A stretch of DNA of 64,000 nucleotides, taken from an uncultured Clostridia bacterium. GTDB lineage: Bacteria; Bacillota; Clostridia; TANB77; CAG-508. A program made the position numbers and the translations under genes. The notes beneath the pieces were generated by a model. The model saw nothing but the letters and a program-made list of their open reading frames with translations. It was not told the origin of the DNA and made no database searches. Position 1 is the stretch's first letter, and every line of letters starts with the position of its first letter. The stretch is from NCBI GenBank assembly GCA_934120675.1, contig CAKOUU010000006.1, positions 23,408-87,407 on the forward strand, written 5' to 3'. This document shows positions 22,611-40,256 of the stretch, in pieces.

Positions 22611-25600
22611 TTATTTAAAATATTTATCTTCAATATATTTTTTACCTATATTAAATACATCTGCATTTCCATTATCAATTAAAATATTTCTCGCCTTTTC
22701 ACATTGCAAATATATATCATATAAATAATCCCATATTTTTAATTTGTCTCCTATTTTTCTTAATTCTTTGTCTTTAATTATCTCAACAAACTTTAAATCA
22801 TATTCGTTTTCTTCTTTATTATAACACTTTTGATATAAAGTTTTCTGATATATTCCATAATCAAAACGTGTCAAATCTTCGAATATTTCCATTCCTGTAA
22901 CAAACCCTATAAATTCTATATAGAGTTGCCTTCTGCCTATACTTCCTAAGCTTTGAAATGCCATATTAAAAAATATTTCGATATCTGATGAATTAACTAT
23001 TGCTCTGGCCACTTTCATTTTTCCTAATTTATTATATTGGCATTTTATTTCATTGATAAAGTAATTTAGAGCTCCAAATACATAATAATTAAAATGTTTT
23101 CTATCTGTCTCTGAATATAAATAAAATATATTTTGTAATTGGTCTATAATTAGTTCATCCTCATCTTCAAACTCATAGAGCTCTGTCCAATCTAAGATTA
23201 TTTTTAATAGATTTTCTTTTCTTTTTATTAGTTCATTTGTAGCAATATATATATAAATGTAAGTATTTATAAATTTTGTTTCTTCTTCTTTTTGATATAT
23301 AATTCCCGTACTATATAGTTCATCTAGTTCTTTTTTATATTGAGTGATGTATTTTTGCATCTCTTTTTGGTTTATATTAAATTTACCTTTTAAAAAGCTA
23401 TCATATGCAATGTCTATAAGTAGTTTGTAACTTTTATTCGAAATATTAAATTTTTCATGCAATATATAATCTAAAAATCCTCTTGCAAGTCCAGTTACAG
23501 ATTCATCTGTTTCTGTTTTTTTGTCTAAAAATTCTTTATATAATTTTAAATTATTATATTCATATTCATTATTTTCACTGGTAAAACTAAATTTCCACCA
23601 GTTTTCATTTGACCTCAATTTTCTCAATAAATCGTAATATTCATTTTTCTTTTTTTGTACTTTTTTTATTTTTATTCCTTTTTCAAACTTTTCTTTTATT
23701 GCTTTAATTTGCATTTCATCTACTGTTTTATATTTATAATATTCTTGTGCTTTTTGTGCTTTGTCATTTCTTATATCCTCTATAGCATTATCCAACATCT
23801 TTCTATCAACATTTACATCACAATAATTATGCAAATATTTTAATATTTTATTTATATATTTTTTGCTATATAAGTTTTGCAAACTAGGTATTTCTTCCAA
23901 AAATGTATCTTTAATCCAAGTTTGTATTATATCCTCTAATTCTTCTCCTTCAATTATTTCTGTTGCTATCTCTTCTGTAAGTTGTTCATTTATTATATCT
24001 TCTACCTCTTCTGAAATTAAGTTTGTTACAGCATCCGAAAATTGATATATATTGTCAATCATGTATTCTGTATCTTTTTGATAATTGAAAATCTTTACAC
24101 ATGTTTTAAAAAAAGTTTCGCAGTCTAATACATCGCTAAGATAATATACCATATCAATATTGCCATATATTATTATATCATTTTTAAACATTTCCATTGT
24201 ATAATCATATAATATATCTGTTTCATTCCCTAAGATATCAATTACTATTTCTGGATCTTCACAAATAAATTGTTCTTCTATTATTTCTTTTAAAAACTTT
24301 TCCCTTTCTGGATTAATTCTGTTTTTTATTATTCTAAATAATATTGTTTTTTTATTATAGTAAAAATACTTTAATGTTTTAAAATCCTTCTCTGCTTTCT
24401 GTGCTAATTTTTCAGCCATCTCATCTTCGTCTATAATCAAATAAATATAATGCAAAGTTTCAACATATTTTGCACTTTTTATATATCTTTCTACATCTAT
24501 TTCTTTGTAGTTTATTTTGTTAATAATATAGTCAGCAATGCTGTGCTTATTTACTTCTAATTCTCTTTCTTCATTTTTATTAAATGTAGTTTTTATAAAT
24601 GAATCACTTAATACTTTTAATGATTTGGCAAATGTTTCTGAATCTATTAATGTGATATTTTCATTTTTTATTATTTGTTTGAATTGTTCTTTTACATATA
24701 GTTCTGGAACTTTTACACCATATAAAACTATTATTGTTAATATTATTTTTTCATATACTGATAATTTTCTATATTCTTCCTCCCACAGTTTATCTGGGTC
24801 GTCTAATGCTTTTAATATATATTCTTTTACATTTTGTATCTTTTTATTTTTTAGTCTTTCACATAAAAGAGAGATGACACCTGGATTAAAATTATCATTT
24901 GTAATAACATCCACATAAAATTCATCTTCTACAATTTTTTTATGTGTTTCTGTTCCCAGCAAATTATTTATCTTCATATGGTTATATAAAATATTTCCTT
25001 TTTCTTCATAAGTATAATTTGTTACATCTATTAGATATTCATCTTTTATGCTTGTTGATTTATAAAACTTATAAAACAGATTTTTAGCATTATTGTATAT
25101 GTAAGTTCTAGTTGTAAAAATAAGTTTTTTATTTTTGGAATTTTTAAAAATTCCAACTATTTTATCCAATGTGTTATCTGCTATATTTTTTTCTAAGTAT
25201 TCAACATTTGACCCCAAAAAGTCATCTAATAAGCAAATTATTTTTTCATCAATAGCGACTTGTTCTTTTATATTTTGTAAATCATCTACATTTCCATATA
25301 TAAACATATATCCCTGCTCTATATATTCTGATACTAATTTTCTTGCTGTTGTGGTTTTTCCAACCCATGGTTCTCCATGTAAAATAACTATATTTTGTCT
25401 TTCCAGCTTTTCTTTTGCCTCTTTATATGCATTTGTTTCAAAAAATACTTTGTTAGATTTTTTTATTTCTTCTAATTCATATTTTGTATTGTAGTTATAG
25501 CATACTATTTTTTTATCATATACTTCTGTCTGTGGTAGTGTTTTTATTTCTTTATATATATTTAAATTTTTTATAAAGTCTACACATATTGAAACTAATT

Positions 25601-26081
25601 TATTTTCTTTTAACGGTGTAAATTTTATTCTTTTTGTTTTATGACTTTTTATTTTGTTTTCTTCTAATATTTGTTCTATTGTTTTTAGGTCGAATACTTT
25701 GTAATATATTTGTGATTTTTTGTATTCGTCTATTTCTGTGATGAAATAGATTGCTCCAATATTTGATTTTCTGTAGTTTTCTATGTCTGATATTTTTACG
25801 TTGTAGTAGGCTTCGTTTCTTGTTTGTTCTTCTGCTTTTGTGTTTGTTTTTTGCGATATTCTTATTTTGTTTTTTTGTTTTATGTTTTGTCCTTTTACTT
25901 GTACTGGTATTATTCCTACTATGTCTGTTGTTTTATTGCTATCTTTTTTGTATAGTTCTATTTTTCCGTCCCACACTGGTTCTTTGTCTCTTTTTCGTAG
26001 ATTCTCTTGTAGGTTGTCATATTTGTTTATTTCATTTATTATCGCACTTATTGCTATGCTTTCTGTTTTTGAAGAATTCAT
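22611..26081 (-). CDS. Large single-gene STAND-like NTPase with an N-terminal DUF4365 (Mrr/REase-like) domain and a long helical C-terminal region; candidate Avs/nSTAND-type antiphage sensor
   Basis: The likely start is MNSSKTESIA at 26081 (SD aaggaag). The N-terminus has WDGKIELYK...IIPVQVKG (DUF4365-like). Walker A is HGEPWVGKTTTARKL and Walker B is IICLLDDFLG. About 700 aa of repeat-like alpha-helical sequence follow. Confidence 0.6.
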   Translation of the reverse strand: MNSSKTESIAISAIINEINKYDNLQENLRKRDKEPVWDGKIELYKKDSNKTTDIVGIIPVQVKGQNIKQKNKIRISQKTNTKAEEQTRNEAYYNVKISDIENYRKSNIGAIYFITEIDEYKKSQIYYKVFDLKTIEQILEENKIKSHKTKRIKFTPLKENKLVSICVDFIKNLNIYKEIKTLPQTEVYDKKIVCYNYNTKYELEEIKKSNKVFFETNAYKEAKEKLERQNIVILHGEPWVGKTTTARKLVSEYIEQGYMFIYGNVDDLQNIKEQVAIDEKIICLLDDFLGSNVEYLEKNIADNTLDKIVGIFKNSKNKKLIFTTRTYIYNNAKNLFYKFYKSTSIKDEYLIDVTNYTYEEKGNILYNHMKINNLLGTETHKKIVEDEFYVDVITNDNFNPGVISLLCERLKNKKIQNVKEYILKALDDPDKLWEEEYRKLSVYEKIILTIIVLYGVKVPELYVKEQFKQIIKNENITLIDSETFAKSLKVLSDSFIKTTFNKNEERELEVNKHSIADYIINKINYKEIDVERYIKSAKYVETLHYIYLIIDEDEMAEKLAQKAEKDFKTLKYFYYNKKTILFRIIKNRINPEREKFLKEIIEEQFICEDPEIVIDILGNETDILYDYTMEMFKNDIIIYGNIDMVYYLSDVLDCETFFKTCVKIFNYQKDTEYMIDNIYQFSDAVTNLISEEVEDIINEQLTEEIATEIIEGEELEDIIQTWIKDTFLEEIPSLQNLYSKKYINKILKYLHNYCDVNVDRKMLDNAIEDIRNDKAQKAQEYYKYKTVDEMQIKAIKEKFEKGIKIKKVQKKKNEYYDLLRKLRSNENWWKFSFTSENNEYEYNNLKLYKEFLDKKTETDESVTGLARGFLDYILHEKFNISNKSYKLLIDIAYDSFLKGKFNINQKEMQKYITQYKKELDELYSTGIIYQKEEETKFINTYIYIYIATNELIKRKENLLKIILDWTELYEFEDEDELIIDQLQNIFYLYSETDRKHFNYYVFGALNYFINEIKCQYNKLGKMKVARAIVNSSDIEIFFNMAFQSLGSIGRRQLYIEFIGFVTGMEIFEDLTRFDYGIYQKTLYQKCYNKEENEYDLKFVEIIKDKELRKIGDKLKIWDYLYDIYLQCEKARNILIDNGNADVFNIGKKYIEDKYFK

Positions 26082-26317
26082 TGGAGGCTTCCTTTCTTTT
26101 TTTCTTATTTTATTATTTTTTGGGAGATGTGTCAATATTGAGGGAGAAAAGAGGTTTGGGGAGTGTGAATTTTTTCTTAAATAATGTTGATACTTTATTT
26201 TTTAAATTTACATTATAGTATATTTAAACAATTACATAAATGTAGAACTACAAACAGACTGCACTTATATAATGAAAAAGTACAAATTCCTTTTACAACA
26301 GAAATATTGCTAAAAAA

Positions 26318-26673
26318 ATGTATGAAAATGATGTGAAAGTAAAGTATCATCCTCAAAATGGAACTTATAAAGATATGGGAATACATGAGGCAGGACATAT
26401 GGCATTAAATGAAATATAAAAAAAGAAATATATAAAGTAACAGACTGGAATAATAATATAACAGTTCAAAGAATAGTAAATGAAGCATTTGAAAATTTAA
26501 AAATAAATGATATAATACAAAAAAGAAAATCCTTAAAGGAAATATCAACACATGCAGTAAAATATAATTTAAATGAAACTATTGCTGAAGCTTTTGCAGA
26601 TTATTATGCTAATAAACAAAATGCTTCATTATTAAGCAAAAACATAATAGAAGTTATGAAAGGGATGATTTAA
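26318..26673 (+). pseudogene. Frameshifted remnant of a zincin-like (HExxH) domain gene of MGE/polyvalent-protein type
   Basis: Frame 1 reads MYENDVKVKYHPQNGTYKDMGIHEAGHMALNEI*. After an A7 run, another frame continues EIYKVTDWNNNITVQRIVNEAFENL...ETIAEAFADYYANKQNASLLSKNIIEVMKGMI*. Confidence 0.5.
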
Positions 26674-26674
26674 T

Positions 26675-26830
26675 ATGATGCCTATGGAACACCCTTGGAC
26701 GGATTGGCAAATAGATACACTAGGAGAAGAAAAACCTTGGAAATGGAAAGAAAATACACCCAAAAAAATAATAGAACAATATAAAGAGTGGGAAAAATAT
26801 TACAATGAAATGATGAAAATTAAATTTTAG
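26675..26830 (+). CDS. Small hypothetical protein (51 aa), below the track cutoff
   Basis: It reads MMPMEHPWTDWQIDTLGEEKPWKWKENTPKKIIEQYKEWEKYYNEMMKIKF. It starts 1 nt after the preceding stop and is followed by a terminator. Confidence 0.35.
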   Translation: MMPMEHPWTDWQIDTLGEEKPWKWKENTPKKIIEQYKEWEKYYNEMMKIKF

Positions 26831-26860
26831 CACTTACTTTAAAAAGTCAGTGCTTTTTTT
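26829..26860 (+). terminator. Intrinsic terminator
   Basis: The stem is agcacttac / gtcagtgct (1 mismatch), followed by T7. Confidence 0.6.
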
Positions 26861-26869
26861 ATGGAAAGA

Positions 26870-27033
26870 ATTTACATTCTACTATATTTAAATAACTACT
26901 TAAGGATTTAATTTCAATAGTGATTTCAGCGGTAGTATTTATATTCTACTATACTTAAATAACTACGCAATAGTATTACAGATTGGAATAATGCAACTTC
27001 TAAATTTATATTCTACTATATTTAAATAACTGC
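26870..27033 (-). CRISPR. Distal (old-end) part of the CRISPR array: 3 degenerate repeats, 2 spacers of 37 nt
   Basis: The repeats at 26870-26899, 26937-26966 and 27004-27033 each differ from the consensus ATTTATATTCTACTATATTTAAATAACTAC at one position. Confidence 0.9.
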
Positions 27034-29883
27034 TTCGATTATACTTCTATAGTGTTTTCTTATTTTTCCTTCTGGTCTTTCTATCTCATTCCAATTTATA
27101 CTTTCTCCTTGAGTATTGACATTTTCTTTTGTTGGAAGATTTATTTTTGTTTTTACATCTTCTTTAGTTGGTAAATTATATTCTTTTAAATTCTTACCTA
27201 TTCCTTGTTTTTGATAGTTGTTTTCTACAAATTGTTGCCAATCTTTAATTGGTAATGCATACTTTTGTTTACCTTTTTTCAAATTAAAAGAACTTGTATT
27301 ATTTTCAGCCTCTGTTTTAGTCTTGTTTGAATTTATAAGGTCAACTATTCTTTGAACAAACTCTTTATTTGCCTTCTTTCTGTCACCTAAATCATCTAAA
27401 TCATATTTATTATATATATTATCATATATTTTTTCTATATCTTTTGACGTTGTTTTTAGTATTGTATCATTAGGAATCACAACATTTTCTCCATCTATGC
27501 CTTCACCTGTTATTTTTCCTGTAAAAAAGTTCACTTCTGGTGCATCTAAATAATGATGGTCTTTTTCATAATTAAAAAAGAAATCAGCACCATCATCAGA
27601 CAAATCAAAAACTGAGGCTCCATTTGTCACATATCCTTCGTCTAATGCAATTTCCCTCTTTATATTAAGATTTTCTTCATTAGACATGTTATTATATTCT
27701 TCTTGAGTAACACCATATTTCTCTAATAATGGATTTTTTTCTATATAATTATCGTTTTTATCATAAAAACTTTCATAATTATCATTTATTAAATCCTCAA
27801 CCTGCTCTTCCCACATTGAAACACCCGATTTATGTTCTTTTCCCTTAAATTCACCTTTTTTATCGAATCTATAATATATATTATGTTCTTCTTGATTTTT
27901 ATCTATATATTTTGCTTTTCTATCCGAATTAATTTTTATTGAATTATTTTCGTTTTTTTGCATAGAATATTTTTGTAATGGTTTTTTATTGACATTTTGT
28001 TTTGTTGATGATAAACTATTAATAGGTAAGTCGTTTGAACTTCCAATTATAGCTGAACTCTTTTTGGAGTTGGAAGCTAAGGGAAGCAAATCACTACCTA
28101 TTTTTTTTATGTTTGTGATATCATATAAATATTTTTTACCATTAGCATCATTTCTTATTACAATAGTTCCACTATATATTTGTTCTTTTCCTTTATGGTC
28201 AAATGAAAATTTTGTATCATATTTATAAAATCCATATTTTGCATCGATATTATGTTTTATTTTTTGATTTTTTTCATAAATTCTATTTGATGCATTTTCA
28301 ATTATTTCTTTTAAACCGCTACTTGCCCTTCCTTTTGCTAATTTATTAGGTAAAGGTAAGTTTTGACTTGATTTTGAAAAGGCATATTCAGATGGTAAAT
28401 CTTTTCCTAAATAAACTTTTTGACCACTTTCAATTATATTAGCATATTCATTTATATTCTCTTCTAAATAATCTTTAATTGTATTATTTATTGATTTCTG
28501 CTTGTTATTTTCAAATATATCGTCATCTATTTTTACTCTATTAAAACTCCCGTCTTCATTATATATAACAGAATATTTCAAATTACTATCATTTTTACTA
28601 AATTCTTGATTATAAGCTGTTTCAAATTTATTTTTTATATCAGTCCAAAATAATTTTTCATTTTTGCCACCAGTAAATTTATTCAATTTATCAATTACCC
28701 AGTTATATATTTTCTTTGCAACAGATTGATTTTGATTAACAAGTCTATTTACATATTCTTGACTTCCTAGTTCTCTCTGTAAAATACTCATAGTTGCCTT
28801 TTCATCAACTATTTTATTGAAATTTTCATCTGATATTTGTATATTATCATTTTCATATGCCTGTTTATATGTATTTTCTAGTGATTTTCTTGCACTTTCC
28901 CAATTTTCTTTTCTACTAGCATCTTTCAATATCATATTTTGTACTTCATTCAAATCTAAATCATGTCCTAACTCATGTATTGCAAGTTCTTGAACCCTTG
29001 TCTTAGTATCTTGTGCTTTAGGATTAAATACAACCTCTCTTCCTGATATGTTACCTTGCTCATCATATGTTGGTTTCCAAACAGAAAAAGCATCATTATT
29101 ATTTTGAAAAGTATTCTCATCAAAATAAGCATTAATTTTTCTTCTATCAAACATTTGCTTTATTTCTTTTAAATCTTCATTTTGATAATCTATGTTATAT
29201 TGTTTTGCACTTTCATTAAAATCTTTTGTGTTTGTTTTATTCGTGGTATTATTTTCTTTCAGATTAGATTTTGAAGTATTTTCATCTTGTATTGGTATAA
29301 TTTGTTGGTCTTTGGTTTTAAATTGATTTTTAGTTGGTAAATTAAAAGAACTAGATTTTTCTAGTCCTTGATTATTTTTCTCAAGTGTTGAATTGCTTGA
29401 TGTTCTGTCATTATATTCTTGTACTCTATTAAATAGTCTATCATTTGTTGCTGCTGTTCTTTCGTTTCCAAGTTGGTTCCTATTATCATCCATGCTTCCT
29501 TTGAAAAATTCAGTTCTCTCATTAGATTCATTAATTTCTGTTCTGTTTTTGTTATTTTCATTGTAATTATTCTCCCACTTTTTAATACTTTGTTTATCTG
29601 CCTTGTTAATTCCTATATTATTCCAGCTTTCAACAAATTTGACTGGTACTTCTTTTATTCCAAGCTCTTTTGCTATTTGTAATCTATGATTTCCATTTTC
29701 TATTTCAATACTACCATCTTTGTTTTTGAATAATTCTATCGGATTTTTTATTCCATTTTCTTGTATATCTTTTTTCAAGTTTTCCATTTGTTGTTTATCT
29801 CTATATCCGCCATATGTTTTTAATTTAAAAATTTCTTCTGTTGGAACATTTTTAACTTCTCCTAAGGCAATATTATTATACAA
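27022..29883 (-). CDS. ParB/Srx-like nuclease domain plus HExxH zincin-motif protein fragment (polyvalent-protein-like), lying between two CRISPR repeats
   Basis: The N-terminal region has NPIELFKNKDGSIEIENGNHRLQIAKELGIKEVPVKFV, and AIHELGHD lies mid-protein. The frame is open from inside repeat 29953-29982 to a TAA inside repeat 27004-27033. The track start is a TTG without SD. Confidence 0.6.
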   Translation of the reverse strand: MYNNIALGEVKNVPTEEIFKLKTYGGYRDKQQMENLKKDIQENGIKNPIELFKNKDGSIEIENGNHRLQIAKELGIKEVPVKFVESWNNIGINKADKQSIKKWENNYNENNKNRTEINESNERTEFFKGSMDDNRNQLGNERTAATNDRLFNRVQEYNDRTSSNSTLEKNNQGLEKSSSFNLPTKNQFKTKDQQIIPIQDENTSKSNLKENNTTNKTNTKDFNESAKQYNIDYQNEDLKEIKQMFDRRKINAYFDENTFQNNNDAFSVWKPTYDEQGNISGREVVFNPKAQDTKTRVQELAIHELGHDLDLNEVQNMILKDASRKENWESARKSLENTYKQAYENDNIQISDENFNKIVDEKATMSILQRELGSQEYVNRLVNQNQSVAKKIYNWVIDKLNKFTGGKNEKLFWTDIKNKFETAYNQEFSKNDSNLKYSVIYNEDGSFNRVKIDDDIFENNKQKSINNTIKDYLEENINEYANIIESGQKVYLGKDLPSEYAFSKSSQNLPLPNKLAKGRASSGLKEIIENASNRIYEKNQKIKHNIDAKYGFYKYDTKFSFDHKGKEQIYSGTIVIRNDANGKKYLYDITNIKKIGSDLLPLASNSKKSSAIIGSSNDLPINSLSSTKQNVNKKPLQKYSMQKNENNSIKINSDRKAKYIDKNQEEHNIYYRFDKKGEFKGKEHKSGVSMWEEQVEDLINDNYESFYDKNDNYIEKNPLLEKYGVTQEEYNNMSNEENLNIKREIALDEGYVTNGASVFDLSDDGADFFFNYEKDHHYLDAPEVNFFTGKITGEGIDGENVVIPNDTILKTTSKDIEKIYDNIYNKYDLDDLGDRKKANKEFVQRIVDLINSNKTKTEAENNTSSFNLKKGKQKYALPIKDWQQFVENNYQKQGIGKNLKEYNLPTKEDVKTKINLPTKENVNTQGESINWNEIERPEGKIRKHYRSIIEAVI

Positions 29884-29952
29884 TGTTTTTTGATTATTTG
29901 CAATATTATTTATTTGCTTTTTATTTCCATTTTGAGCATTTTTATTTTCAAT

Positions 29953-31683
29953 ATTTATATTCTACTATATTTAAATAACTACATGTTCCTTTCATTTAAT
30001 TATTCTTAACTCTAAATCATTTATATTCTACTATATTTAAATAACTACGGAAACAATGCTTATGCAAGCAACCCTATGTGGTATAAAGAATTTATATTCT
30101 ACTATATTTAAATAACTACATGTTAGAACTGATGGAAGGTACATATTCAAACAAATTTATATTCTACTATATTTAAATAACTACTTCATTTACATTATCA
30201 TTTACATTATTTATATTCTACTATATTTAAATAACTACTTGATAATTACTAGAATTATACATTCCAACTTTATTATTTATATTCTACTATATTTAAATAA
30301 CTACCACTTGCAGGAAATTTACTTGTTACCATAACATAATTTATATTCTACTATATTTAAATAACTACGATTTAAGCAAAACTAACAATTCGATAACAGT
30401 TTCGGAATTTATATTCTACTATATTTAAATAACTACAATTACCTGAACTAGTTCAAGAAAATGATTATAAATTATTTATATTCTACTATATTTAAATAAC
30501 TACTTTTAATAGATATGGAACATTAGATTTATATTTAGAATTTATATTCTACTATATTTAAATAACTACCTGGTGTTAAATGTAATTATGTTGCTTTGAT
30601 GTATATTTAATTCTACTATATTTAAATAACTACATTGATATCTTTTCCAATTGTGATTCTTGCACCCCAATTTATATTCTACTATATTTAAATAACTACC
30701 TAATCTTCCACTCAATGTTTTGGGAATGTTAAAGTATATTTATATTCTACTATATTTAAATAACTACAGATTTTATGATAGAAGAAAATTACGCACAAGG
30801 TTAATTTATATTCTACTATATTTAAATAACTACCCAAGTGGTATTCTATCTCCTTCTAAAACTTTAAGATTTATATTCTACTATATTTAAATAACTACAT
30901 ATTTTCTTTTATTTCTGTATATTCTAAATTTTCATTTATATTCTACTATATTTAAATAACTACGCAGATATTGCACCAAAATTAAAAATGAGTGTCGAAT
31001 TTATATTCTACTATATTTAAATAACTACCAAAAGAAAGTTATATGGCTAATTGCTATAAAGTATTTATATTCTACTATATTTAAATAACTACACCTTCTT
31101 TATTTATAAAAATCTATATAATAAAGAAATTTATATTCTACTATATTTAAATAACTACCGTATAATTTAGTATCTTGTCCAAAATCTTCTTGATAAATTT
31201 ATATTCTACTATATTTAAATAACTACACTGTACTTACACTTCTTAATTGTTCCTCTATTACATTTATATTCTACTATATTTAAATAACTACATAAACTAT
31301 TAATTATAGTAATATCTTCTACATCATTTATATTCTACTATATTTAAATAACTACCTTGATAAATTTGCTCTTGAAGAGGATTTTATTGAAAAATTTATA
31401 TTCTACTATATTTAAATAACTACCTCCTGTTTCTTCATTAACAAGAGGTTCTTTCATATTTATATTCTACTATATTTAAATAACTACGGCAAAACAGTAG
31501 CAGTATATGAGAGAACACAAGCATTTATATTCTACTATATTTAAATAACTACAAGGAGAGTGTAAGATTATGATAAAATCAAGTAAATTTATATTCTACT
31601 ATATTTAAATAACTACAGAATCCAACTCTATATTTTCATAACTTAAAATTTGAATTTATATTCTACTATATTTAAATAACTAC
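29953..31683 (-). CRISPR. Main CRISPR array: 27 repeats of 30 nt, 26 spacers (24-41 nt, mostly 34-38)
   Basis: The repeat is ATTTATATTCTACTATATTTAAATAACTAC on plus, or GTAGTTATTTAAATATAGTAGAATATAAAT in the transcribed minus orientation, which is clostridial I-B-like. The repeat at 30605-30633 has a 1-nt deletion. All others are perfect. Confidence 0.97.
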
Positions 31684-31862
31684 AGGTAAAAAAATGTGCC
31701 TTACTACACGCCAACTCTAATGATATAATCTGTCTATCTATACACATATTACCACGGAAAAAACAAAAATGAAATATCAATTTAATTAAAACTTTATATT
31801 TCAATAAATTTCCTATCTGTCGTTAACCATATATTTCAGCCACATTTCACATCGACAGATAT
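31684..31862 (-). promoter_or_regulatory. CRISPR leader
   Basis: This AT-rich 179-nt non-coding stretch lies between the cas2 stop and the first repeat, in the same orientation as the cas operon. Confidence 0.7.
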
Positions 31863-32147
31863 TTATAAAAAATTATCTGTCACATCATCCTCAATCTTTC
31901 CCCAAAACTCCTTTTCTAACCACCTTTGACTTCTGCTCTTAAAGAAAATAACACTATCCTTATCCTCTCTAATCCATCTATTTAATTCAGACTTTAACTT
32001 TAATGCTTGAGACTCTAATAATTCGCCTTCAAATACTGAATTTTGAATATGTACCAAATATTTTTTGCATGTTTTAAACACTCTTCTTAGGACTCTTTGT
32101 CCTTCTTTATCCTCTAAATTAATATCATACACTAAAATAACATACAT
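31863..32147 (-). CDS. cas2: CRISPR-associated endoribonuclease Cas2
   Basis: It reads MYVILVYDINLEDKEGQRVLRRVFKTCKKYL...; the start at 32147 lies directly after the cas1 stop. Confidence 0.9.
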   Translation of the reverse strand: MYVILVYDINLEDKEGQRVLRRVFKTCKKYLVHIQNSVFEGELLESQALKLKSELNRWIREDKDSVIFFKSRSQRWLEKEFWGKIEDDVTDNFL

Positions 32148-32148
32148 A

Positions 32149-33141
32149 TTACCACCACATTTTAAACCCTTCATACTTTTCATCTTCTAATAAATGTTTG
32201 ATTAGCTTATAAACTTCTAATCTCATTAAATACTCATAACTAACTTCTCTGCCCAATTTTTTATGTTTAATTTTTGTTTGTAGCCTTAAATCAATTTCTC
32301 TTGTAATCTCTTTTCTTGCCTTATCTTTTATATATGTAAAATTCAATCCATCTTCAAAATCCTTTTCCGTTATCTGTTTTTTATTTAACATTGAAAAAAT
32401 CAGTCTATCCGCTATGATTGGTTTAAAGATTTCGGAAATATCTAAGCATAAAGAAAATCTTCTTTCTGATGGTTCATGTAAATAACTTATAGTTGGATTT
32501 AATTGTGTCTTATAAATTTCACTTAATACTCTTGTATATATAATTGTATTGACATATGAAATTAGCGAATTTATTGCATTATCAGGTGGATTTTTTACTC
32601 TTTTTTCAAATGCTATATCTTGATTTATTATTATATTCCATGTATCATAATATACTTTTCTTATATTTCCTTCTATTCCCATCAATTCTGGTACATCTTT
32701 ACACAAATTTATCTGTTTTCTTAAATAGTCTATTTCTTCCATATATTTCTTTAAGTCTTTTCCTCTATTATTGTAATATGTTAAATTTCTGTAAATATTG
32801 TATGATGCAGCTTCTATAAATGCTTTTGCAATGTTTAATCTTTTTTCTTTGTCCTTGTAATGTTCAACTTGTTTTATAAGCAATTTTCCTGAAACAAGTG
32901 ATTCTTTTGGATAATATGTTCCTGTATAAAATCCATAATAATTAAAAAAGTGTATATTTACTCCATATGATGATAAAAAGTTTAATAAACTTGTATTAAA
33001 ATCTAATTCTGTCATTACATATATATCGTCAACTCTTTCTACTGGTATTGATTTCTTTGTATTATCTTTGTATACAATTTCTAAAGTGTTGTCTTTTCTT
33101 TGTAGTCTCCCGCTTCTATATAAATAATAAGATTGTTTCAT
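32149..33141 (-). CDS. cas1: CRISPR-associated endonuclease Cas1 (I-B type)
   Basis: It reads MKQSYYLYRSGRLQRKDNTL... and has Cas1 hallmarks (LNPTISYLHEP, SLCLDISEIFKP). SD aaggagg lies upstream. Confidence 0.9.
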   Translation of the reverse strand: MKQSYYLYRSGRLQRKDNTLEIVYKDNTKKSIPVERVDDIYVMTELDFNTSLLNFLSSYGVNIHFFNYYGFYTGTYYPKESLVSGKLLIKQVEHYKDKEKRLNIAKAFIEAASYNIYRNLTYYNNRGKDLKKYMEEIDYLRKQINLCKDVPELMGIEGNIRKVYYDTWNIIINQDIAFEKRVKNPPDNAINSLISYVNTIIYTRVLSEIYKTQLNPTISYLHEPSERRFSLCLDISEIFKPIIADRLIFSMLNKKQITEKDFEDGLNFTYIKDKARKEITREIDLRLQTKIKHKKLGREVSYEYLMRLEVYKLIKHLLEDEKYEGFKMWW

Positions 33142-33151
33142 GTCTTCCTCC

Positions 33152-33640
33152 TTATACATAACATAAATCATAATATGAACATTTAGTACATATCTTTGAA
33201 TTAATTGTTTTGGGTGGTTTATCCATTTCTACTATTTCTTGTATGTTTTTTATTACATTATCTAATATTTTATTATCTTCATCTTCTAATATTATTTCTT
33301 TTGATTCCCTTAAAAGAGGAAAGTCTATTTTTGCTTGTATATTTTTTACACCTTTGTTTTCTAAATAATACATATAATATTTTATTTGCCATATTCCAGC
33401 ATCTTCAATTGATTTCGTCTTTTTAACTTCATGTAGTACTGCTCCATTTTTTATAAAGTCTATATTTATTGTATTGTCAATTAGAATTTGTTTCTTTTCT
33501 TTGCTATATGTTGTTTCATCAATTATTTTTCCTATTTCTACTAATTCACTATTTTGTTCCATATTGATTTGATTGTCAAAATACCATAATCTTCTATGAC
33601 ATATAAAGTAATAGTATATCATTATTCCTGTAACATTCAT
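33152..33640 (-). CDS. cas4: CRISPR-associated exonuclease Cas4
   Basis: It has an N-terminal Cys (YYYFICHRRLWY) and the C-terminal CTKCSYYDLC cluster of the RecB-like Cas4 family. Confidence 0.85.
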   Translation of the reverse strand: MNVTGIMIYYYFICHRRLWYFDNQINMEQNSELVEIGKIIDETTYSKEKKQILIDNTINIDFIKNGAVLHEVKKTKSIEDAGIWQIKYYMYYLENKGVKNIQAKIDFPLLRESKEIILEDEDNKILDNVIKNIQEIVEMDKPPKTINSKICTKCSYYDLCYV

Positions 33641-33754
33641 TACATCATCTCTTTCTACACAAATTTATTTATTTGATTTACAAATTCTTAAATATACTTG
33701 TTGCAAGCCACATTTTTATTACACTATGAAATAATCTGTGACTTGCAACATATC

Positions 33755-35947
33755 TTACAATTCTCTTGAACTTATTGAATATTCTTCATCATTTTCCAAA
33801 AGTAAACCAATTTCTTTATCATATTTTGTATCAATAATATATTTTCCTTTAATGTATGGACATTCTGTTATGACATTTCCTAATTTCCATTTGTTAGAAC
33901 TATTAATTGATATAAATAGTTTATCTATTCTTCGTTTTAACTCATATTTTTTCTTTTTGTCTGACTCCTTTGAATATTCTTCAAATAAATTTAGATTATC
34001 ATCATAAATAATTTTAGGAATAACATCAATATTATCAATATTTCTCAATATTTTTTGTGCATCCTTTTTACTTGTATCATAATCAATAATGTTATCTAGT
34101 ACTCGAAACGCATCATTGAAATTTTTGTAAAACTCAGTATTTTGTAGCATTTCTTTTGAATATAATTTATCAACTAAAGCTATTTTTGTTTTTTCTTCTA
34201 AAATTTGTCCGCTATGCTCTTGCAATAAATCAATACTTTTTTGATATATTTCTTTATCATATATGTATCCAACACCACTTGTTTCTTTTATATAAATTTT
34301 TACATTTGACTCTTTTCCTTTATATTCTCTACTTCTATAGCATCTTCCAAATCTTTGAAATAAACTGTCTAGTGTGGACATTTCTGTATATAGCATATCA
34401 AAGTCTATGTCTAATGAAGCCTCTACTATTTGTGTTGTTATCCATATTCCTGATTCAGCTTTTTGTTTTGAAAATTCTTTTATGCTTCTTTCTTTTTCAC
34501 TTCTATCTTCTTGTTCAAATCTTGAATGTAATAAATTTACTTTTTCTACTCCATAATTTTTTAATGCTTTATATAATTCTATTGCTTTGTTTATTGTGTT
34601 TACTATTATTAATACTTTTTTATTTTTTGCTTTTTCTTTTATTTCTTCTATTTCTTCATTAATTGATTTATCTATTATTTCAAATTTATGTCTTTTTGTA
34701 TCTTTTATAAATTCATTATATTCAAATTTTATTCCCATTACTTGTAGTTTTTCTCTGTATATTCTAGGAAGTGTTGCTGTTATTACCATAAATTTTCCAT
34801 CTAAGTTGTTTATCATTTGAAGTCCTTTTAATAGTACCGCTACTATTTCTGGTGAATATGCTTGTATCTCATCTATTACGACTTTTGAGTAACTTAGAGT
34901 TGCATATATTTTTTCATATCCTCTGTACTTAAATACAAATGGAAAGATTTGGTCTATTGTACATGTTGTGATTTTTTCATACAAATTTCTAGCTTGTTGT
35001 ATTTTATTAAATTCATTTTCTTCATTTTTTTCGTCTAAATAGTCTAATGCTGTTGAGTGTAATAGTCCAACATGTTTGTATCCTATTGTTTCTTTTATTC
35101 TGTCATATATTGCATTTATGCTTATTCTTAAAGGTAGTGTGAAAAATGTTTTGTCATTTTTGCTCCATAAAAGTGCTCCTTCTGTTTTTCCCATTCCTGT
35201 TGAGCCTATTACTATTACATTTTTGTCTTGATTTTTTTCTGCAAATTGTTGTAAATCGTTTTCTTTGAAGTTTTGCTTTTTCATAAATTCTTCTACAAAA
35301 TCTGCTATTTCTTCTTTTGTTTCGTCTTCTACTGTTATCCATGCTGAACTACAATAGTCTAGTCTATGTAATAGTCCTTTCATTAGGCAATATTCGTTAT
35401 ATAACTCATCTCCTTCTGTTATTCTCGCTTGTCCTTCTACCATTCCTAAATAAAATGTACTTAATTTTGGTATTTCAATTTGTAATTCTTTTTCTATTTT
35501 TTTGATGTTTGGCTCTATATCTTCTTTTATTATTTCTTCTAGTAGTTCACTGTTTATGTGTATTTTATTGTCTCTTTCGTGATGATAATAGATTGCTTGA
35601 TATACTAGTTTTCTTTCTTTTTTTGTCATTTCATATTGTTTGTATGGCACAAACATTGGAGATATTTGTTCATGTTTTATTTCTTGATTGTTAAATTTTG
35701 TTGGTATTAGTTCTTCTCCTATTGCTTCTCTTATTGCATTTTGAAATCCTGAAAATACTTTTCCTGCATCATGATATTTGCATACTATTTTCATTAGTTG
35801 CCAGAATCTTTCTTCTGGCATTTCTATTGATTGTGTTATTTTTTCTCCATATCCCTTTTTTAATATTTCTAAGTTCTCTAATAGTTTATCTGTGTGTTCT
35901 TTTATTGTTTCTATTGGATTTGATTTTGCATAATATTTATACTCCAT
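33755..35947 (-). CDS. cas3: CRISPR-associated helicase/nuclease Cas3 (HD domain fused)
   Basis: HD motifs (KYHDAGK, YYHHERD), helicase motif I GSTGMGKTE and motif II DEIQ are present. The likely start MEYKYYAKSNP overlaps the cas5 end. Confidence 0.9.
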   Translation of the reverse strand: MEYKYYAKSNPIETIKEHTDKLLENLEILKKGYGEKITQSIEMPEERFWQLMKIVCKYHDAGKVFSGFQNAIREAIGEELIPTKFNNQEIKHEQISPMFVPYKQYEMTKKERKLVYQAIYYHHERDNKIHINSELLEEIIKEDIEPNIKKIEKELQIEIPKLSTFYLGMVEGQARITEGDELYNEYCLMKGLLHRLDYCSSAWITVEDETKEEIADFVEEFMKKQNFKENDLQQFAEKNQDKNVIVIGSTGMGKTEGALLWSKNDKTFFTLPLRISINAIYDRIKETIGYKHVGLLHSTALDYLDEKNEENEFNKIQQARNLYEKITTCTIDQIFPFVFKYRGYEKIYATLSYSKVVIDEIQAYSPEIVAVLLKGLQMINNLDGKFMVITATLPRIYREKLQVMGIKFEYNEFIKDTKRHKFEIIDKSINEEIEEIKEKAKNKKVLIIVNTINKAIELYKALKNYGVEKVNLLHSRFEQEDRSEKERSIKEFSKQKAESGIWITTQIVEASLDIDFDMLYTEMSTLDSLFQRFGRCYRSREYKGKESNVKIYIKETSGVGYIYDKEIYQKSIDLLQEHSGQILEEKTKIALVDKLYSKEMLQNTEFYKNFNDAFRVLDNIIDYDTSKKDAQKILRNIDNIDVIPKIIYDDNLNLFEEYSKESDKKKKYELKRRIDKLFISINSSNKWKLGNVITECPYIKGKYIIDTKYDKEIGLLLENDEEYSISSREL

Positions 35948-36602
35948 TTGGCATCCTTTCACTATAAAAATATATATTGTCTCCGTCTTCATCCTGTAAT
36001 ATTTCTTCAATACCTTTATTAGTATATTTTTCTATATATTTTACATTTACTTTGTTCCATTGTCTTATATCATTTTTTATTTTGTATGTAGTATTTAGTT
36101 TGTAATTAATTCCTTCTATTTCGTTATCTATCCATTCCGGTACATATGCATTAATTTCTATTTTCGCTTCATCTATTTCTTTTACCTCTTTTAAAACTTT
36201 AATTTCGTCTATCCTTACAAGGTCTTCGTTTCTTCCTAGTGTGAATGTTTCTGTTCCGTTTATTATGTTTTCATATATTTTGTCTATGACGTCATCTTCT
36301 GCCTGTACATGTATAATTAAATTGACATTTAGTAATTGATGTACATTTCTTGGCATTGATGTTACTTTGTCTTTTCCTTTATACATTCTTAAATTTTGAT
36401 AGTTGCTAAATATTCCTTCATAGTTTCCTTGTATAGAAATGTTCATTGGAAAGTATTCTCCTGGTTGCGCTTGCAAGATTTTATGGAACATTCCTATTAC
36501 TGTTGAGTATGGTGGTAATGGATATGTTTCTGCTACTTTTGTGGCAAATGGCTTTTTATAACATGCTGTTTCTTGGTATAGTTTTAGTTTTAATATTTTC
36601 AT
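35937..36602 (-). CDS. cas5: Type I-B Cas5
   Basis: It has MKILKLKLYQETACYKKPFA..YPLPPYSTVIGM, typical of a Cas5 N-terminus. Confidence 0.85.
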   Translation of the reverse strand: MKILKLKLYQETACYKKPFATKVAETYPLPPYSTVIGMFHKILQAQPGEYFPMNISIQGNYEGIFSNYQNLRMYKGKDKVTSMPRNVHQLLNVNLIIHVQAEDDVIDKIYENIINGTETFTLGRNEDLVRIDEIKVLKEVKEIDEAKIEINAYVPEWIDNEIEGINYKLNTTYKIKNDIRQWNKVNVKYIEKYTNKGIEEILQDEDGDNIYFYSERMPNGV

Positions 36603-36672
36603 TTATACCAATCCTTTCTTTTATGCTTTGTAATATTTTTTCATTTCTTCTATGTTGAAAAATTTATTAAGT

Positions 36673-37581
36673 TTATGCTTTATAGTATTCTTCGACTTTT
36701 TCTTTTAGATTTTTAAAGATTTCTTCTATGTTTGTTGTTTTTCCTTCAAATATTTCTTCTATTTCTTTTTCATTTTTGAATGTGTTTTTTACTATTCCTA
36801 TTTTTGTGTCTTCTGATATTGAGTTTTCTCCTATTGTTAATGTTGCTGTGTCTTTTAACATTTCTGTGTCTATACTGAATTGTCCGTCTTTTCCGTTTAG
36901 TTTTATTCTTCCTAGGAAAAATGGTGAGTTTATGTCATACATTCCTCCTATTACAAATACTGGACTTAAGTTTTCTTCTCTTCCTCTTATTTCTCTGTTT
37001 AGGATTTTTACTATGTCTAGCAATTGGTTGATTCTTTTTGCTTTTTCTTCGTTTGGTAGTTCTATTTCTCCGTCTTTTCCTATTTTTTCTAGGTCTATTG
37101 TTATTGTGTATGTGTAGTAACTTAAGTGTTGTTCGATGTTTGCAAGGTTTGGAAATTCTCCTATTCTGTCTGCTAGTCCTTTATTGTTTAAAAATTCCAT
37201 ATCACTTTTATAGTCTTCTAATGATATTGCATTACTTAGTCTTACTGCTGCACTTCTTATGTTTGAGCCGTCATTTTTCGCTGTCTTCATGTATCCAAAT
37301 AAGTCCATTTCTTCTGAATCTTGTATTGTTAATTTGTCATCAAATTGGATTGTTCCTTTTTCTTTATTTACTACTTGTAAATTCCAATCAAACATTTTAT
37401 TTCCAAGTCTTACTATGTCATATCTTATTGCTTGTCTTGATGCAAATGTGTATACACTTCCGTCTCCTCTTGTTAATTTCTTTAGTTCTGATATATTACC
37501 TATTCCTTCTCCGTAGTTTAAACTTTGGCCTTTAAATATTATTGTTATTGATAATCCTTTTTTATTTTTTATATTCTCCAT
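36673..37581 (-). CDS. cas7: Type I-B Cas7 (Cst2/DevR/Csh2 family)
   Basis: It has LSITIIFKGQSLNYGEG..NISELKK...YTFASRQAIRYDI. Confidence 0.85.
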   Translation of the reverse strand: MENIKNKKGLSITIIFKGQSLNYGEGIGNISELKKLTRGDGSVYTFASRQAIRYDIVRLGNKMFDWNLQVVNKEKGTIQFDDKLTIQDSEEMDLFGYMKTAKNDGSNIRSAAVRLSNAISLEDYKSDMEFLNNKGLADRIGEFPNLANIEQHLSYYTYTITIDLEKIGKDGEIELPNEEKAKRINQLLDIVKILNREIRGREENLSPVFVIGGMYDINSPFFLGRIKLNGKDGQFSIDTEMLKDTATLTIGENSISEDTKIGIVKNTFKNEKEIEEIFEGKTTNIEEIFKNLKEKVEEYYKA

Positions 37582-37639
37582 TTTATTTCCTTCCTTTCTC
37601 TTTTTTGTTCTTCATTGTTATATGATTTTTATTATATTT

Positions 37640-39484
37640 TTATACTTTGGCTTCGCTATCTTCATCTTTTTTCTCGTATTTATTAGAAATTAGACCTGCT
37701 AAAAAGCTATGTGCAATTGATTCAAAATCTAGTCCTTCTGTTTGCATTGTTTCAATAAATATAGGGCTTACATCTTTTCCCATTGACATATGTATTCTTA
37801 TTACAATATCCATAAATTGTTTTTTGTTTCCCGCTTTTATACTGTTTAACATTTTATATGTATATCCATCAATTTTGTTTTCTTCTCCTGTTCTTTTTAA
37901 ATCCTCATGCATTTGTATTCCTAAGTTATACAATACTTTTAATTTGGCATCACTTTTTTTGATTTCTTCCATTTCAATGTCCTCCTTTTTTAATAGATTT
38001 AGTATCATTCTTACTCTTGTTGCTAAGAATGAATTGTATCCATTTGTATTTTCTTTATTTAGCTCATCTCTTAATCTGTCATTTATTATATATTTGATAT
38101 CTTTGTTCTTTAAAATATAGTCTACTATTTGTAGTCTATATCTGTAATCTCTTATTTTTGAAAGTGTTTTGTCTGAATATTCTGTAAAAAATTTTGATAC
38201 ATATCTTTTTATATTGAAGTATTCAATTCTACTATATGCTCCATATTCTGCTTCAAATTCAACTACAAATATATTTTCCAATTGCCATGTACTTACTTGT
38301 TTATCTTGCTCTACTATGTCTAGGATTAGTTCTGTATATGGATTTCCATCTCTGTTCTCATACCTTGATTTGTTACCAAAATTCACATTTGTTTTATATA
38401 ATTTTTCAACACTTGTATCTAGGTTCACAAAACTTAATATTTGTTTTTCTTTATAGTCTCCATTTTCTTTTACTGTTTTGGTTATTGTTGTTATTCCTGC
38501 TGGTATGCAAAATAAAATTAGTTTACATATATCACATATTGGCATTTTTACATTTTGCTCCCAGAAGAAGTTTCGTGCATTATCACTACTTATTGCTAGT
38601 GGTGCAAAATTTCCTTCTGAATAATTTGTTGTTAATCCAATTTCATTTTCACACATTGAGCATCTTTGAATAACCTTTTCTTTTAAATATCTTTGAATTT
38701 CTTCTACTTCTTTATTTTTTCCTATGTAGTCTTTCTCTATTTTTGAGTATATTTTTTCTATTTCTTTTGTTATATTTCCTTCTATTTTTGTTTTTTCTAT
38801 GTATTGTCTTATTTCTTCTATATTATATTTTCCTTTTATAATGTCTTGGATAAATCCTGTTTCTACAATGTTACTAACATAATCTTTGTACATTAATTTT
38901 TCTTGTTCTTCATATGTTAGTCCAGTTTTCACTACATTTAGGAAGCTTGGTTGTCCATAATATGTGTTGCTTAATATACTCTTGAATAGATTCAATGTAA
39001 GTCTTTTATTTATGTTTTCTTTTCTTATTTTTTCTAGTATTTTTTCTTCTATTTCTATTATCCCTTGTTTTGTATTTTCTTTTTCTATTTTGTCATATTG
39101 TTCTTTCATTTCATTGTATGTTTGCTCGTCTATTTTTTTAATTTTGTCTAATTGTTTTTTTACCGTGTCTTTTATGTATTTTTTATTTGTTTTTAATTTG
39201 TCTTTTCTTTGTTTTTCTTCTTCTTTTTCTAATGGCGTTTCTATGTTGTTTTCTAAATATCTAAATGCATTGTTTGTTCTATTTTTTACATTTTCTGCTA
39301 CATTGTATTTATCATAAAAATATTTAAAATAGTATTTATTGAAATCTCTTAAATCTTCTGTATCTATTTCTATATAGTTGTTTCTTTTTGTTGCAAATTG
39401 ATTCTCATTATGTTCTAATATTTTAAGAAAACCAACAACACCACAATTTAAGTACCAATCATTTAAGTATATTTTTGTTTTCAC
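37640..39484 (-). CDS. cas8b: Type I-B large subunit Cas8b
   Basis: Its position between cas6 and cas7, the N-terminus YLNDWYLNCGVVGFLKILEH, and a Cys cluster (CSMCENE...CDICKL) support the call. Confidence 0.8.
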   Translation of the reverse strand: MKTKIYLNDWYLNCGVVGFLKILEHNENQFATKRNNYIEIDTEDLRDFNKYYFKYFYDKYNVAENVKNRTNNAFRYLENNIETPLEKEEEKQRKDKLKTNKKYIKDTVKKQLDKIKKIDEQTYNEMKEQYDKIEKENTKQGIIEIEEKILEKIRKENINKRLTLNLFKSILSNTYYGQPSFLNVVKTGLTYEEQEKLMYKDYVSNIVETGFIQDIIKGKYNIEEIRQYIEKTKIEGNITKEIEKIYSKIEKDYIGKNKEVEEIQRYLKEKVIQRCSMCENEIGLTTNYSEGNFAPLAISSDNARNFFWEQNVKMPICDICKLILFCIPAGITTITKTVKENGDYKEKQILSFVNLDTSVEKLYKTNVNFGNKSRYENRDGNPYTELILDIVEQDKQVSTWQLENIFVVEFEAEYGAYSRIEYFNIKRYVSKFFTEYSDKTLSKIRDYRYRLQIVDYILKNKDIKYIINDRLRDELNKENTNGYNSFLATRVRMILNLLKKEDIEMEEIKKSDAKLKVLYNLGIQMHEDLKRTGEENKIDGYTYKMLNSIKAGNKKQFMDIVIRIHMSMGKDVSPIFIETMQTEGLDFESIAHSFLAGLISNKYEKKDEDSEAKV

Positions 39485-39542
39485 TTTTTATATCACTCCT
39501 CTCTCATACTATAAATTATGTAATTTTTAACAAATTTCTTTT

Positions 39543-40256
39543 TTATAATATTTGGAACATCCCAAATCCCGCACTATGTTTGCTTCCGATTCCTGCTTGA
39601 TATAAATACTTAAGCAATTCTTTATTTCCGCTTATTTCAAATGTTCCTGTTGAACACTCTATACATTTTTCATAAAACTTTATTAATATTTTTTTTGCAT
39701 TTATTGGTTTTATTGTAAACGTGTCTACTTTTTCTGTTGGTATGTTTGTTATTTTTAGTTGTTCTTTGATGTTGATTTTTAGTATTTCTTCAAATTTTTC
39801 GTTTTCATATGAGTAATAGTAGTCTTTGTTGTTTTCTCTTGCTCTTACACATAGTGGTGATTGAAATTTTACTATTATTTTGTCTGTTGTTATTTCTTTT
39901 TCTTTTATCATTGTTATGTTTTCTAAAGTCATTGAGTTACTGTTTAGTGGATATTTTTTGTGTTTTTGTTTGTTAAATGAGTTATATAATATTATTCCTG
40001 TTTCATAGTCTGATGTTGATATGTTTAATTCTAAATTATTGTCTTTTAGTATAATTTTGTCACTTTCTATTTTTCGTTGTTTATAATATGTTGAAAATGT
40101 GTATTGTTTTATTATTGGGTCTTTTCCATTGTAGTATTTTGAATAATACTTTGTGTCATATTTTTCTAGGCAATATTTGAAAAAGCTTATTATTGTTTTT
40201 CTGTATTGTATTGGTATTTCTTCTTTTTCCAGTTCAAAGTATAATTTAAATCTCAT
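39543..40256 (-). CDS. cas6: CRISPR repeat endoribonuclease Cas6
   Basis: It has the C-terminal Gly-rich loop GIGSKHSAGFGMFQIL and is the first gene of the cas operon. Confidence 0.85.
   Translation of the reverse strand: MRFKLYFELEKEEIPIQYRKTIISFFKYCLEKYDTKYYSKYYNGKDPIIKQYTFSTYYKQRKIESDKIILKDNNLELNISTSDYETGIILYNSFNKQKHKKYPLNSNSMTLENITMIKEKEITTDKIIVKFQSPLCVRARENNKDYYYSYENEKFEEILKINIKEQLKITNIPTEKVDTFTIKPINAKKILIKFYEKCIECSTGTFEISGNKELLKYLYQAGIGSKHSAGFGMFQIL

Follow-up and report, generated by a model that had tools for sequence, protein, structure and literature searches.

A 2.9-kb unit of phage origin occupies a spacer position in an active type I-B CRISPR array of a gut Clostridia lineage

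The CRISPR locus considered here lies in a 64,000-nucleotide (nt) stretch of DNA, hereafter the window, from an uncultured Clostridia bacterium (contig CAKOUU010000006.1, positions 23,408 to 87,407). On the minus strand, from 40256 to 31866, a complete type I-B cas operon in the order cas6, cas8b1, cas7, cas5, cas3, cas4, cas1, cas2 is followed by a leader and a repeat-spacer array, in which one spacer position holds 2,919 nt that come from the interior of a phage gene. In the sense of the CRISPR RNA (crRNA), the array repeat reads GTAGTTATTTAAATATAGTAGAATATAAAT. The features from the cas genes to the trailer end of the array are the following.

31866..40256, minus strand: type I-B cas operon (Pfam and NCBIfam matches above curated cut-offs)
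31684..31865, minus strand: leader, 182 nt, defined by position as the interval from the cas2 stop codon to the first repeat
29953..31683, minus strand: leader-side array block of 27 repeats and 26 spacers of 24-41 nt (repeat scan)
29953..29982, minus strand: upstream junction repeat, identical to the consensus at 30/30 positions (repeat scan)
27034..29952, minus strand: giant spacer of 2,919 nt and 973 sense codons, an internal slice of a phage polyvalent-protein gene (homology and open reading frame)
29641..29799, minus strand: ParB_N-like nuclease domain (Pfam PF02195, 21.6 bits; phrog_1033, E=3.5e-5; ParB_N in homologs)
28963..28977, minus strand: HELGH (HExxH) motif in a module common to the phage homologs (sequence and nucleotide alignment)
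27004..27033, minus strand: downstream junction repeat beginning GCAG (T2C), a 29/30 match, which supplies the codons AVI and a TAA stop (repeat scan)
26870..27003, minus strand: two old 37-nt spacers and two one-mismatch repeats (repeat scan)
26206..26869, minus strand: a 634-nt stretch with decayed plus-strand gene remnants, then a five-mismatch repeat

An initial annotation, made from the sequence alone, had called the array type I-B, and the cas genes bear this out. Models for Cas8b1/Cst1 (TIGR01908), Cas7/Cst2 (TIGR02585) and Cas5t (TIGR01895), together with those for Cas3', Cas3'', Cas4 and Cas6, match above cut-off, and Cas1 and Cas2 were identified by Pfam; the Cas8b signature is accompanied by Cas7, Cas5, Cas3, Cas4, Cas1, Cas2 and Cas6, in agreement with the definition of the subtype. 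The host belongs to an uncultured gut Clostridia lineage, its Cas1 being 99% identical to that of a Hadza metagenome-assembled genome and 96% identical to that of Clostridium sp. CAG:389. Between 31683 and 29953 the repeats are perfect in 26 of 27 cases, and the exception, repeat 17 (30603-30632), has a 1-nt deletion that is common to all strains. Distal to the insert stand three repeats with one private mismatch each (27033-27004, which is T2C; 26966-26937; and 26899-26870), and a fourth with five mismatches is found at 26206-26235, after 634 further nt. The three one-mismatch repeats had been taken for a normal degenerate terminus; the mismatches themselves are there, but a constraint relaxed downstream of a polar insert may account for the decay instead.

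In place of a normal spacer between the repeats at 29953-29982 and 27004-27033, the initial annotation had described 2,919 nt, and a repeat scan confirms it. The insert shares with ordinary spacers a complete repeat on both sides and junctions at the repeat borders, and its phage homology stops at the last base before the repeat. In length it departs from them, as the other 28 spacers measure 24-41 nt (the ruler range here being 34-41 nt). A single open frame on the crRNA-sense strand spans the insert, opening after a TAG in the upstream repeat and ending at the TAA in the downstream repeat (...RSIIEAVI*), just as the annotation had it. Given the base composition of the insert, the probability of 973 codons without a stop is 1.6e-45, and the remaining five frames hold 37-178 stops. 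The lack of an ATG or a Shine-Dalgarno sequence at the 5' end was also described correctly: the frame offers its first start codon at 29883, a TTG that no Shine-Dalgarno sequence precedes, and an ATG first appears in frame at codon 56, which lies within the ParB_N match. Gene callers give a product of 953 amino acids (aa), P0001. Of the two domains named in the annotation, the HExxH motif is present as stated, while the ParB-like domain falls under the Pfam cut-off of 26.3 bits and draws its support from the PHROG match and from the homologs. Neither flanking repeat is interrupted, and Pfam and PHROG searches found no integrase or transposase in the insert.

The translated insert matches 33 proteins, mostly of 1,430-1,710 aa, whose Pfam domains are those of the polyvalent-protein set (LPD23, LPD38, LPD3, ART-PolyVal, PBECR3 and ParB_N), and it is colinear with an internal part of them, about residues 430-1400. 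Its 5' end aligns at about residue 430 of the 1,638-aa homologs P0016 and P0018 ('...NKTAQNGN..QINNNLANN..TLYNDIALGETKNVP'). Its 3' end aligns to '...GKIRKHYKSIIE' of P0003, which continues as 'SSNTTKEAK...', and 1,600-aa homologs show the pattern '...KHY(K/R)SIIE' followed by 'SSNT...' across the same border. At the nucleotide level, patches of the insert are 82-94% identical to viral contigs of IMG/VR and to phage-like metagenome contigs, on which capsid, portal and terminase genes neighbour the homologs. The module containing HELGH is 89-92% identical to L006-L022, and the last 34 nt of the insert are identical in phage L009. The alignments that extend to the 3' end all terminate at the last insert base, and the best 5' alignment begins at insert base 5, so that phage homology extends to within 0-4 nt of both repeat borders. 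GenBank phages and PLSDB plasmids yielded no match to the insert at the nucleotide level.

A complete polyvalent gene would look different: the insert has no start or stop of its own, its sole stop coming from the repeat, and it lacks the ~1,600-aa architecture. The remaining part of the gene was not found within the window. Because colinear homology ends at the repeat borders and the window lacks the remainder of the gene, the insert is an internal slice of a phage gene for a polyvalent protein of ~1,600-1,700 aa and not a gene in its own right. The initial annotation had suspected a slice of a much larger gene cut at the repeat boundaries, which is now placed from about residue 430 to the last insert base. 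It had also proposed a protein of the phage or conjugative-element type, and the viral contigs narrow this source to phage. Certain linker motifs recur between polyvalent modules, namely '..(N/K)xAQNGN(M/I)EQ..' and 'KDWQQFVE(N/D)NYQKQGTG' (P0014-P0032, and near the ParB module in L023 and L024); both insert ends fall in or beside such conserved linker or module-start sequences.

The insert is real and inherited. In the assembly collection, 44 index blocks contain its 953-aa product, and the 23 contigs that were read, 52-100 kb long and from four distinct samples and assemblers, carry the identical structure. Repeats are classic sites of misjoining in short-read assemblies, and the initial annotation had listed a misassembly among its explanations. 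An assembly chimera at the repeats can nevertheless be practically dismissed, as the contigs that share the insert differ from one another in leader-side spacers and in cas3-cas4 sequence. The insert is 100% identical in L001 and L002, and L001, which is of Hadza origin, has the same array with five additional spacers at the leader end. Since strains share the insert while differing in leader-side spacers, the array is active and still acquiring spacers, and no fewer than 26-31 acquisitions came after the insert. Every long contig with an identical Cas2 has it. Compared with the window, L027 and L029 diverge by 3-4% over the cas operon, and in cas3-cas4 (33400-36400) by as much as ~6%, whereas their array, insert and downstream genes are 99.96-99.98% identical. 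Despite the divergence in cas3-cas4, the cas7-cas8b and cas2 genes of these strains are identical to those of the window, which suggests, by sequence comparison, recombination within the cas operon.

The spacers of normal length reveal both the protospacer adjacent motif (PAM) and the phages under attack. CCA or CCT lies directly upstream in five of the six cases with matches (TCA in the sixth), and the same motif emerges from the spacers of related arrays, so that the PAM is 5'-CCW. The type I-B system of Clostridioides difficile likewise uses CCW, with CCC, CCG and TCA as common alternatives, of which CCG is over-represented (PMC4556805). A protospacer of window spacer #8 (sp13 in L001) lies at L116:7450-7485 with TCA instead of CCW and four mismatches, which either escape of the phage by mutation or use of an alternative PAM could explain. 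Spacer #25 (30049-30089), one of the five, matches six IMG/VR contigs over 41 of 41 nt with CCA upstream, and spacer #26 (29983-30018) matches IMG/VR phages with a CCA PAM. They are the two units just leader-side of the insert, and their targets lie ~150 nt apart on opposite strands. One contig, 3300045988_120268, holds both the protospacer of #25 and a homolog of the polyvalent gene. Because #25 and #26 target the family that carries the polyvalent gene, the insert and the acquisitions that followed it derive from one phage family. No array spacer targets the insert itself; the distal spacers #28 and #29 have no protospacer in IMG/VR, and none of the array spacers matches a GenBank phage. Spacer #23 (30184-30207), only 24 nt long, is a short tandem repeat (AATGTAAATGAT-like) that matches a tandem-repeat region of phage L111.

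A scan of 80 cas1-linked loci, covering ~75 related species with an array in the locus, brought a second case to light. At L043:12872-13456, a 585-nt unit sits between two perfect repeats of an array with 26 perfect repeats. It runs from within the gene for a phrog_9479 protein, of which it encodes the C-terminal two-thirds, across an intergenic region into the gene for a small terminase subunit, of which it encodes the N-terminal part. Exact and protein searches of IMG/VR found no source for it; a later protein search found the phage contig L117, which is 96.9% identical over the full length of the unit. The alignment bounds are the first and last base of the unit, apart from one chance-matching repeat base beyond its start. 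Directly 5' of the start, L117 reads CCT, where the frequency of CCW is 0.0087 per nt, and at neither junction does it contain a repeat. Taken with the window insert, this unit suggests that phage DNA is occasionally captured by CRISPR memory loci in kilobase-sized pieces. Another long unit, of 4,203 nt, stands between perfect repeats one spacer from the trailer end at L059:14717-18919 and carries complete genes for regulators and a membrane protein (AraC/GyrI-like, TetR, CPBP-protease and XRE-type); neither a PAM signature nor a leader accompanies it, and it lacks a homolog in the other loci as well as an informative one elsewhere. The window, L043 and L059 units all lie 1-3 spacers from the trailer end. 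At L081:12095-17296 and L084:11631-16835, a single cas operon is followed by two arrays that differ in repeat variant and lie ~5.2 kb apart. No spacer is common to the window array and the 80 related loci, and none of 1,372 spacers from related species matches the insert.

In the window and in L043 alike, both ends of the long unit look like protospacer boundaries. The nucleotide-exact borders, together with a canonical PAM at the one testable 5' end, exclude random illegitimate recombination and the decay of an inserted element. As these borders are of the protospacer type and not random breakpoints, the insert was very probably installed by a process tied to CRISPR memory. Three short intervals at its ends matter for the choice of process.

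29917..29952, minus strand: putative former spacer S1, ~36 nt at the 5' end of the insert, beginning ATTGAAAATAAAAATGCTC (from the two-spacer model)
27073..27075, minus strand: internal CCA, the canonical PAM as derived from the array's own spacers, 39 nt before the insert 3' end
27034..27072, minus strand: putative former spacer S2, the last 39 nt, beginning (G)AAGGAAAAATAAG and ending ATAATCGAA (from the two-spacer model)

Our tentative preference, which was not among the explanations of the initial annotation, is that the giant spacer is a relic slice held in spacer position through homology-directed replacement between two neighbouring spacers. An ancestral array would have contained two neighbouring same-strand spacers against this polyvalent gene, a kind of pair that primed adaptation yields: the older S2, with its CCA PAM, would now form the last 39 nt of the insert, and the newer S1 would have matched the phage 2.9 kb upstream. 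In a later infection, phage DNA spanning both protospacers would have recombined with S1 and S2, either in one event resembling gene conversion or recombineering, or by integration at S1 and subsequent deletion at S2, and the intervening phage DNA would have replaced the repeat between them. In recombineering, homology arms of 35-50 nt suffice. Such a replacement predicts a phage PAM before the 5' end, which is seen for L043 as the CCT in L117, and a second PAM within the insert, in the same orientation and at spacer distance (~34-41 nt) from the 3' end. At that distance the window has its CCA at 39 nt, where the probability of a CCW anywhere in a 34-41-nt interval is ~0.08, and L043 has a CCG at 35 nt, with a chance of ~0.03-0.05. 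Homology-directed replacement is preferred over capture by the integrase because each of its steps has a documented counterpart.

Several observations weigh against this preference. At the 5' junction of the window insert, the two nearest relatives read CAA and not CCW, in a region that is a variable linker. The parental junction itself was not found by exact search, either with a 27-mer in IMG/VR or with a 30-mer in non-array context in the JGI metagenomes, nor by a protein search of the JGI metagenomes with the ParB module; a protein search with the first 215 aa gave a best match of only 58%. The 39 nt of S2 exceed the usual 34-38-nt spacer range of the array, although a 41-nt spacer exists, and the CCG in L043 is a non-canonical PAM. 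Neither the 4.2-kb unit of L059 nor the 634-nt stretch of the window has a PAM at ruler distance. An array with S1 and S2 as ordinary spacers was not found, every contig with an identical Cas2 already holding the insert. Finally, two adaptation complexes on one DNA molecule would leave the same two-PAM signature without any recombination.

This last point leads to a rival that is possible, if doubtful, and only slightly less likely than the preferred reading: an aberrant acquisition, as the initial annotation had also listed, in which Cas4-Cas1-Cas2 integrated kilobase-long DNA at the repeat that was then leader-proximal, the repeat was duplicated as normally, and later spacers were added upstream. 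A PAM-selected prespacer, S1, might have kept an untrimmed 3' tail on its non-PAM side, the far end of which was joined to the repeat; or two complexes might have bound protospacers PS1 and PS2 on one phage DNA, so that one complex integrated S2 by its non-PAM end and the other S1 by its PAM end. Both junctions lie exactly at the positions of Cas1 cutting, with full repeats flanking the insert, and in the near-parent phage of the L043 unit a canonical CCT PAM immediately precedes the 5' end. The phage family that gave the insert also supplied the next two acquisitions, #26 and #25, as would happen in a single episode of infection or priming, and other length errors occur in the array (the 24-nt and 41-nt spacers). 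Two or three cases in ~75 related species suggest a clade-specific property of the adaptation module, and their common position near the trailer end fits events that are tolerated only with few downstream spacers. Casposases, which are homologs of Cas1, integrate kilobase-long DNA. On the other side, the Cas1-Cas2 ruler normally holds spacer length within a few nucleotides, and we know of no kilobase integration by Cas1-Cas2 in vivo. From a single complex, neither the CCA at 39 nt nor the CCG at 35 nt would be expected, whereas the variant with two complexes predicts such an internal PAM, and the T2C change in the downstream repeat must postdate the event. The broader proposition, that type I-B Cas4-Cas1-Cas2 can integrate PAM-defined DNA of hundreds to thousands of bases at the leader-proximal repeat in vivo, in the manner of casposases, and that giant spacers are a recurrent class overlooked by array-detection software, is rather unlikely.

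The other explanations fare worse. Phage-borne repeats, as solitary units, mini-arrays or Racr-type decoys, could have recombined with the array and moved the DNA between them into it, as the initial annotation had also proposed. Solitary repeats and mini-arrays are described for phages (PMC10651486), and past the 3' junction phages read AGTAGTAAT, which weakly resembles the repeat start GTAGTTAT. Against this, the 24 related phage loci contain no repeat at up to eight mismatches save one chance match with eight, there is none at the homologous junctions, L117 lacks one at either junction of the L043 unit, and a repeat within the gene would add stop codons to the frame. Since no repeat occurs at the junctions or elsewhere in these loci, this route finds no support and is very improbable. 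The same resemblance was considered as microhomology at the junction and rejected: the phage reads GAA followed by AGTAGTAAT, the observed junction is GAA followed by GCAGTTATT, and reaching it would need an extra deletion and a substitution; no such similarity exists in L043. An insert size equal to a whole number of repeat-spacer units, in a Sulfolobus-like manner, was likewise rejected (2949/65.7 = 44.9), although this test is powerless. Two separate arrays might flank ordinary DNA, as the paired arrays of L081 and L084 and the complete genes between perfect repeats in L059 would allow, or an inserted prophage, insertion sequence or Tn7-like element might have decayed to a remnant, since CRISPR repeats are known targets of both prophages and Tn7-like elements (10.1101/2020.10.09.333658; PMC11837452). 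Yet the insert is a slice of a gene without start, stop, promoter, integrase or transposase, the flanking repeats are uninterrupted, and no leader-like sequence precedes the distal repeats (in this comparison the leader segment of the window was offset by 29 nt, which leaves the result unaffected). Decay by deletion, moreover, would not put both breakpoints on repeat borders to the nucleotide, and this origin is accordingly rated as highly improbable.

It is harder still to credit that the host has domesticated the slice as a gene, with a ParB-nuclease/HExxH protein made from the array transcript and serving a host function. Its frame of 973 codons is intact in a genome of 26% G+C, and gene callers predict P0001 from it. 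A young age would explain the intact frame equally well, though, and with neither ATG nor Shine-Dalgarno sequence, a stop codon taken from the repeat and both ends cutting conserved modules, the slice does not resemble a working gene. Purifying selection is not measurable, because all copies are identical. With no start context and a borrowed stop codon, the insert is probably a non-coding relic that is not translated.

At the level of RNA, the giant unit is likely co-transcribed within the pre-crRNA; a terminator-like hairpin, a match to consensus only, lies ~580 nt into the insert. Cleavage by Cas6 at the flanking repeats would release an RNA of ~2.95 kb, from which a crRNA made of the 5' handle and S1 may survive 3' trimming. 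Units downstream of the insert probably lose expression, which fits the mutation of all three downstream repeats as against 26 exact repeats of 27 upstream, one having the 1-nt deletion. Within the 634-nt stretch beyond them (26236-26869) are a fragment resembling a HEAGH peptidase and a 51-aa open reading frame that is a called gene in other assemblies, both on the plus strand; the stretch may be an older captured fragment or plain trailer DNA. Directly downstream of the array, at 22611-26135 on the minus strand, a gene encodes a protein of 1,174 aa in which Pfam recognises an nSTAND3 NTPase domain (E=2.4e-36), likely a defence-island neighbour.

Recombination between spacers and their phage targets reportedly occurs in staphylococci with type III-A and II-A systems (Varble and colleagues, 2019). 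As there, spacers of 30-40 bp would serve as homology between phage DNA and array; the staphylococcal events are said to be single crossovers that join whole phage genomes to CRISPR loci and lead on to transduction, whereas a stable replacement here would have left only the interval. Polyvalent proteins of phages and conjugative elements, which Iyer and colleagues are said to have described in 2017, include the LPD, ART-PolyVal and PBECR families. The ParB_N domain, HExxH module and linkers of the insert match members of 1,600-1,700 aa, and, unlike full polyvalent proteins, it has neither the N-terminal region nor the conserved C-terminal half, nor a start or stop of its own.

Phage DNA inside a CRISPR array that alters its output has a parallel in the PhiAP1.1 prophage of Streptococcus pyogenes, which enters through its integrase at an 8-bp attB within a repeat and splits that repeat (10.1101/2020.10.09.333658). 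That is a whole prophage; the window insert is a mere slice of a gene, without an integrase and between intact repeats. Tn7-like elements that target CRISPR repeats are also described (PMC11837452), and they and prophage integration differ from the window insert in every junction feature. Ordinary acquisition by Cas4-Cas1-Cas2 of the C. difficile type I-B system (PMC4556805) agrees in PAM, in junction positions and in the targeted phages as source, and differs in that the window unit is ~80 times the ruler length. One partial precedent is the 899-bp fragment of a pNOB8-like plasmid between two repeats of CRISPR locus F in Sulfolobus solfataricus (Lillestol et al. 2009, as summarised in PMC4390879). 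There, too, mobile-element DNA far longer than a spacer lies between repeats of a regular array, and it is noted as a rare irregularity; that locus is archaeal type I-A, leaderless and inactive, and the summary includes no mechanism, PAM or junction analysis. The window array, in contrast, is bacterial type I-B and still acquiring, its insert is an intact frame of 2.9 kb, and a second case comes with PAM evidence. In the literature, no reports of giant, oversized or long spacers or of kilobase integration in vivo were found.

Spacer length has been treated as the hard output of the Cas1-Cas2 ruler. The kilobase units described here have spacer-exact borders, at least one PAM-defined end and stable inheritance, and, with their second occurrence, they argue that the ruler is sometimes bypassed in nature, be it by the integrase itself or by spacer-guided recombination. 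Either route would amount to a natural placement of long DNA at a defined CRISPR site. Giant units are a blind spot of array finders, which split arrays at them. For incoming phages, the unit offers 2.9 kb of homology within the immune locus, which could promote recombination between phage and CRISPR locus and silence the older spacers downstream. If the integrase itself were responsible, giant spacers would be a route for arrays to capture and archive gene-sized pieces of phage. In either case this is a barely described kind of structure, and a capture reaction that bypasses the ruler is now testable.

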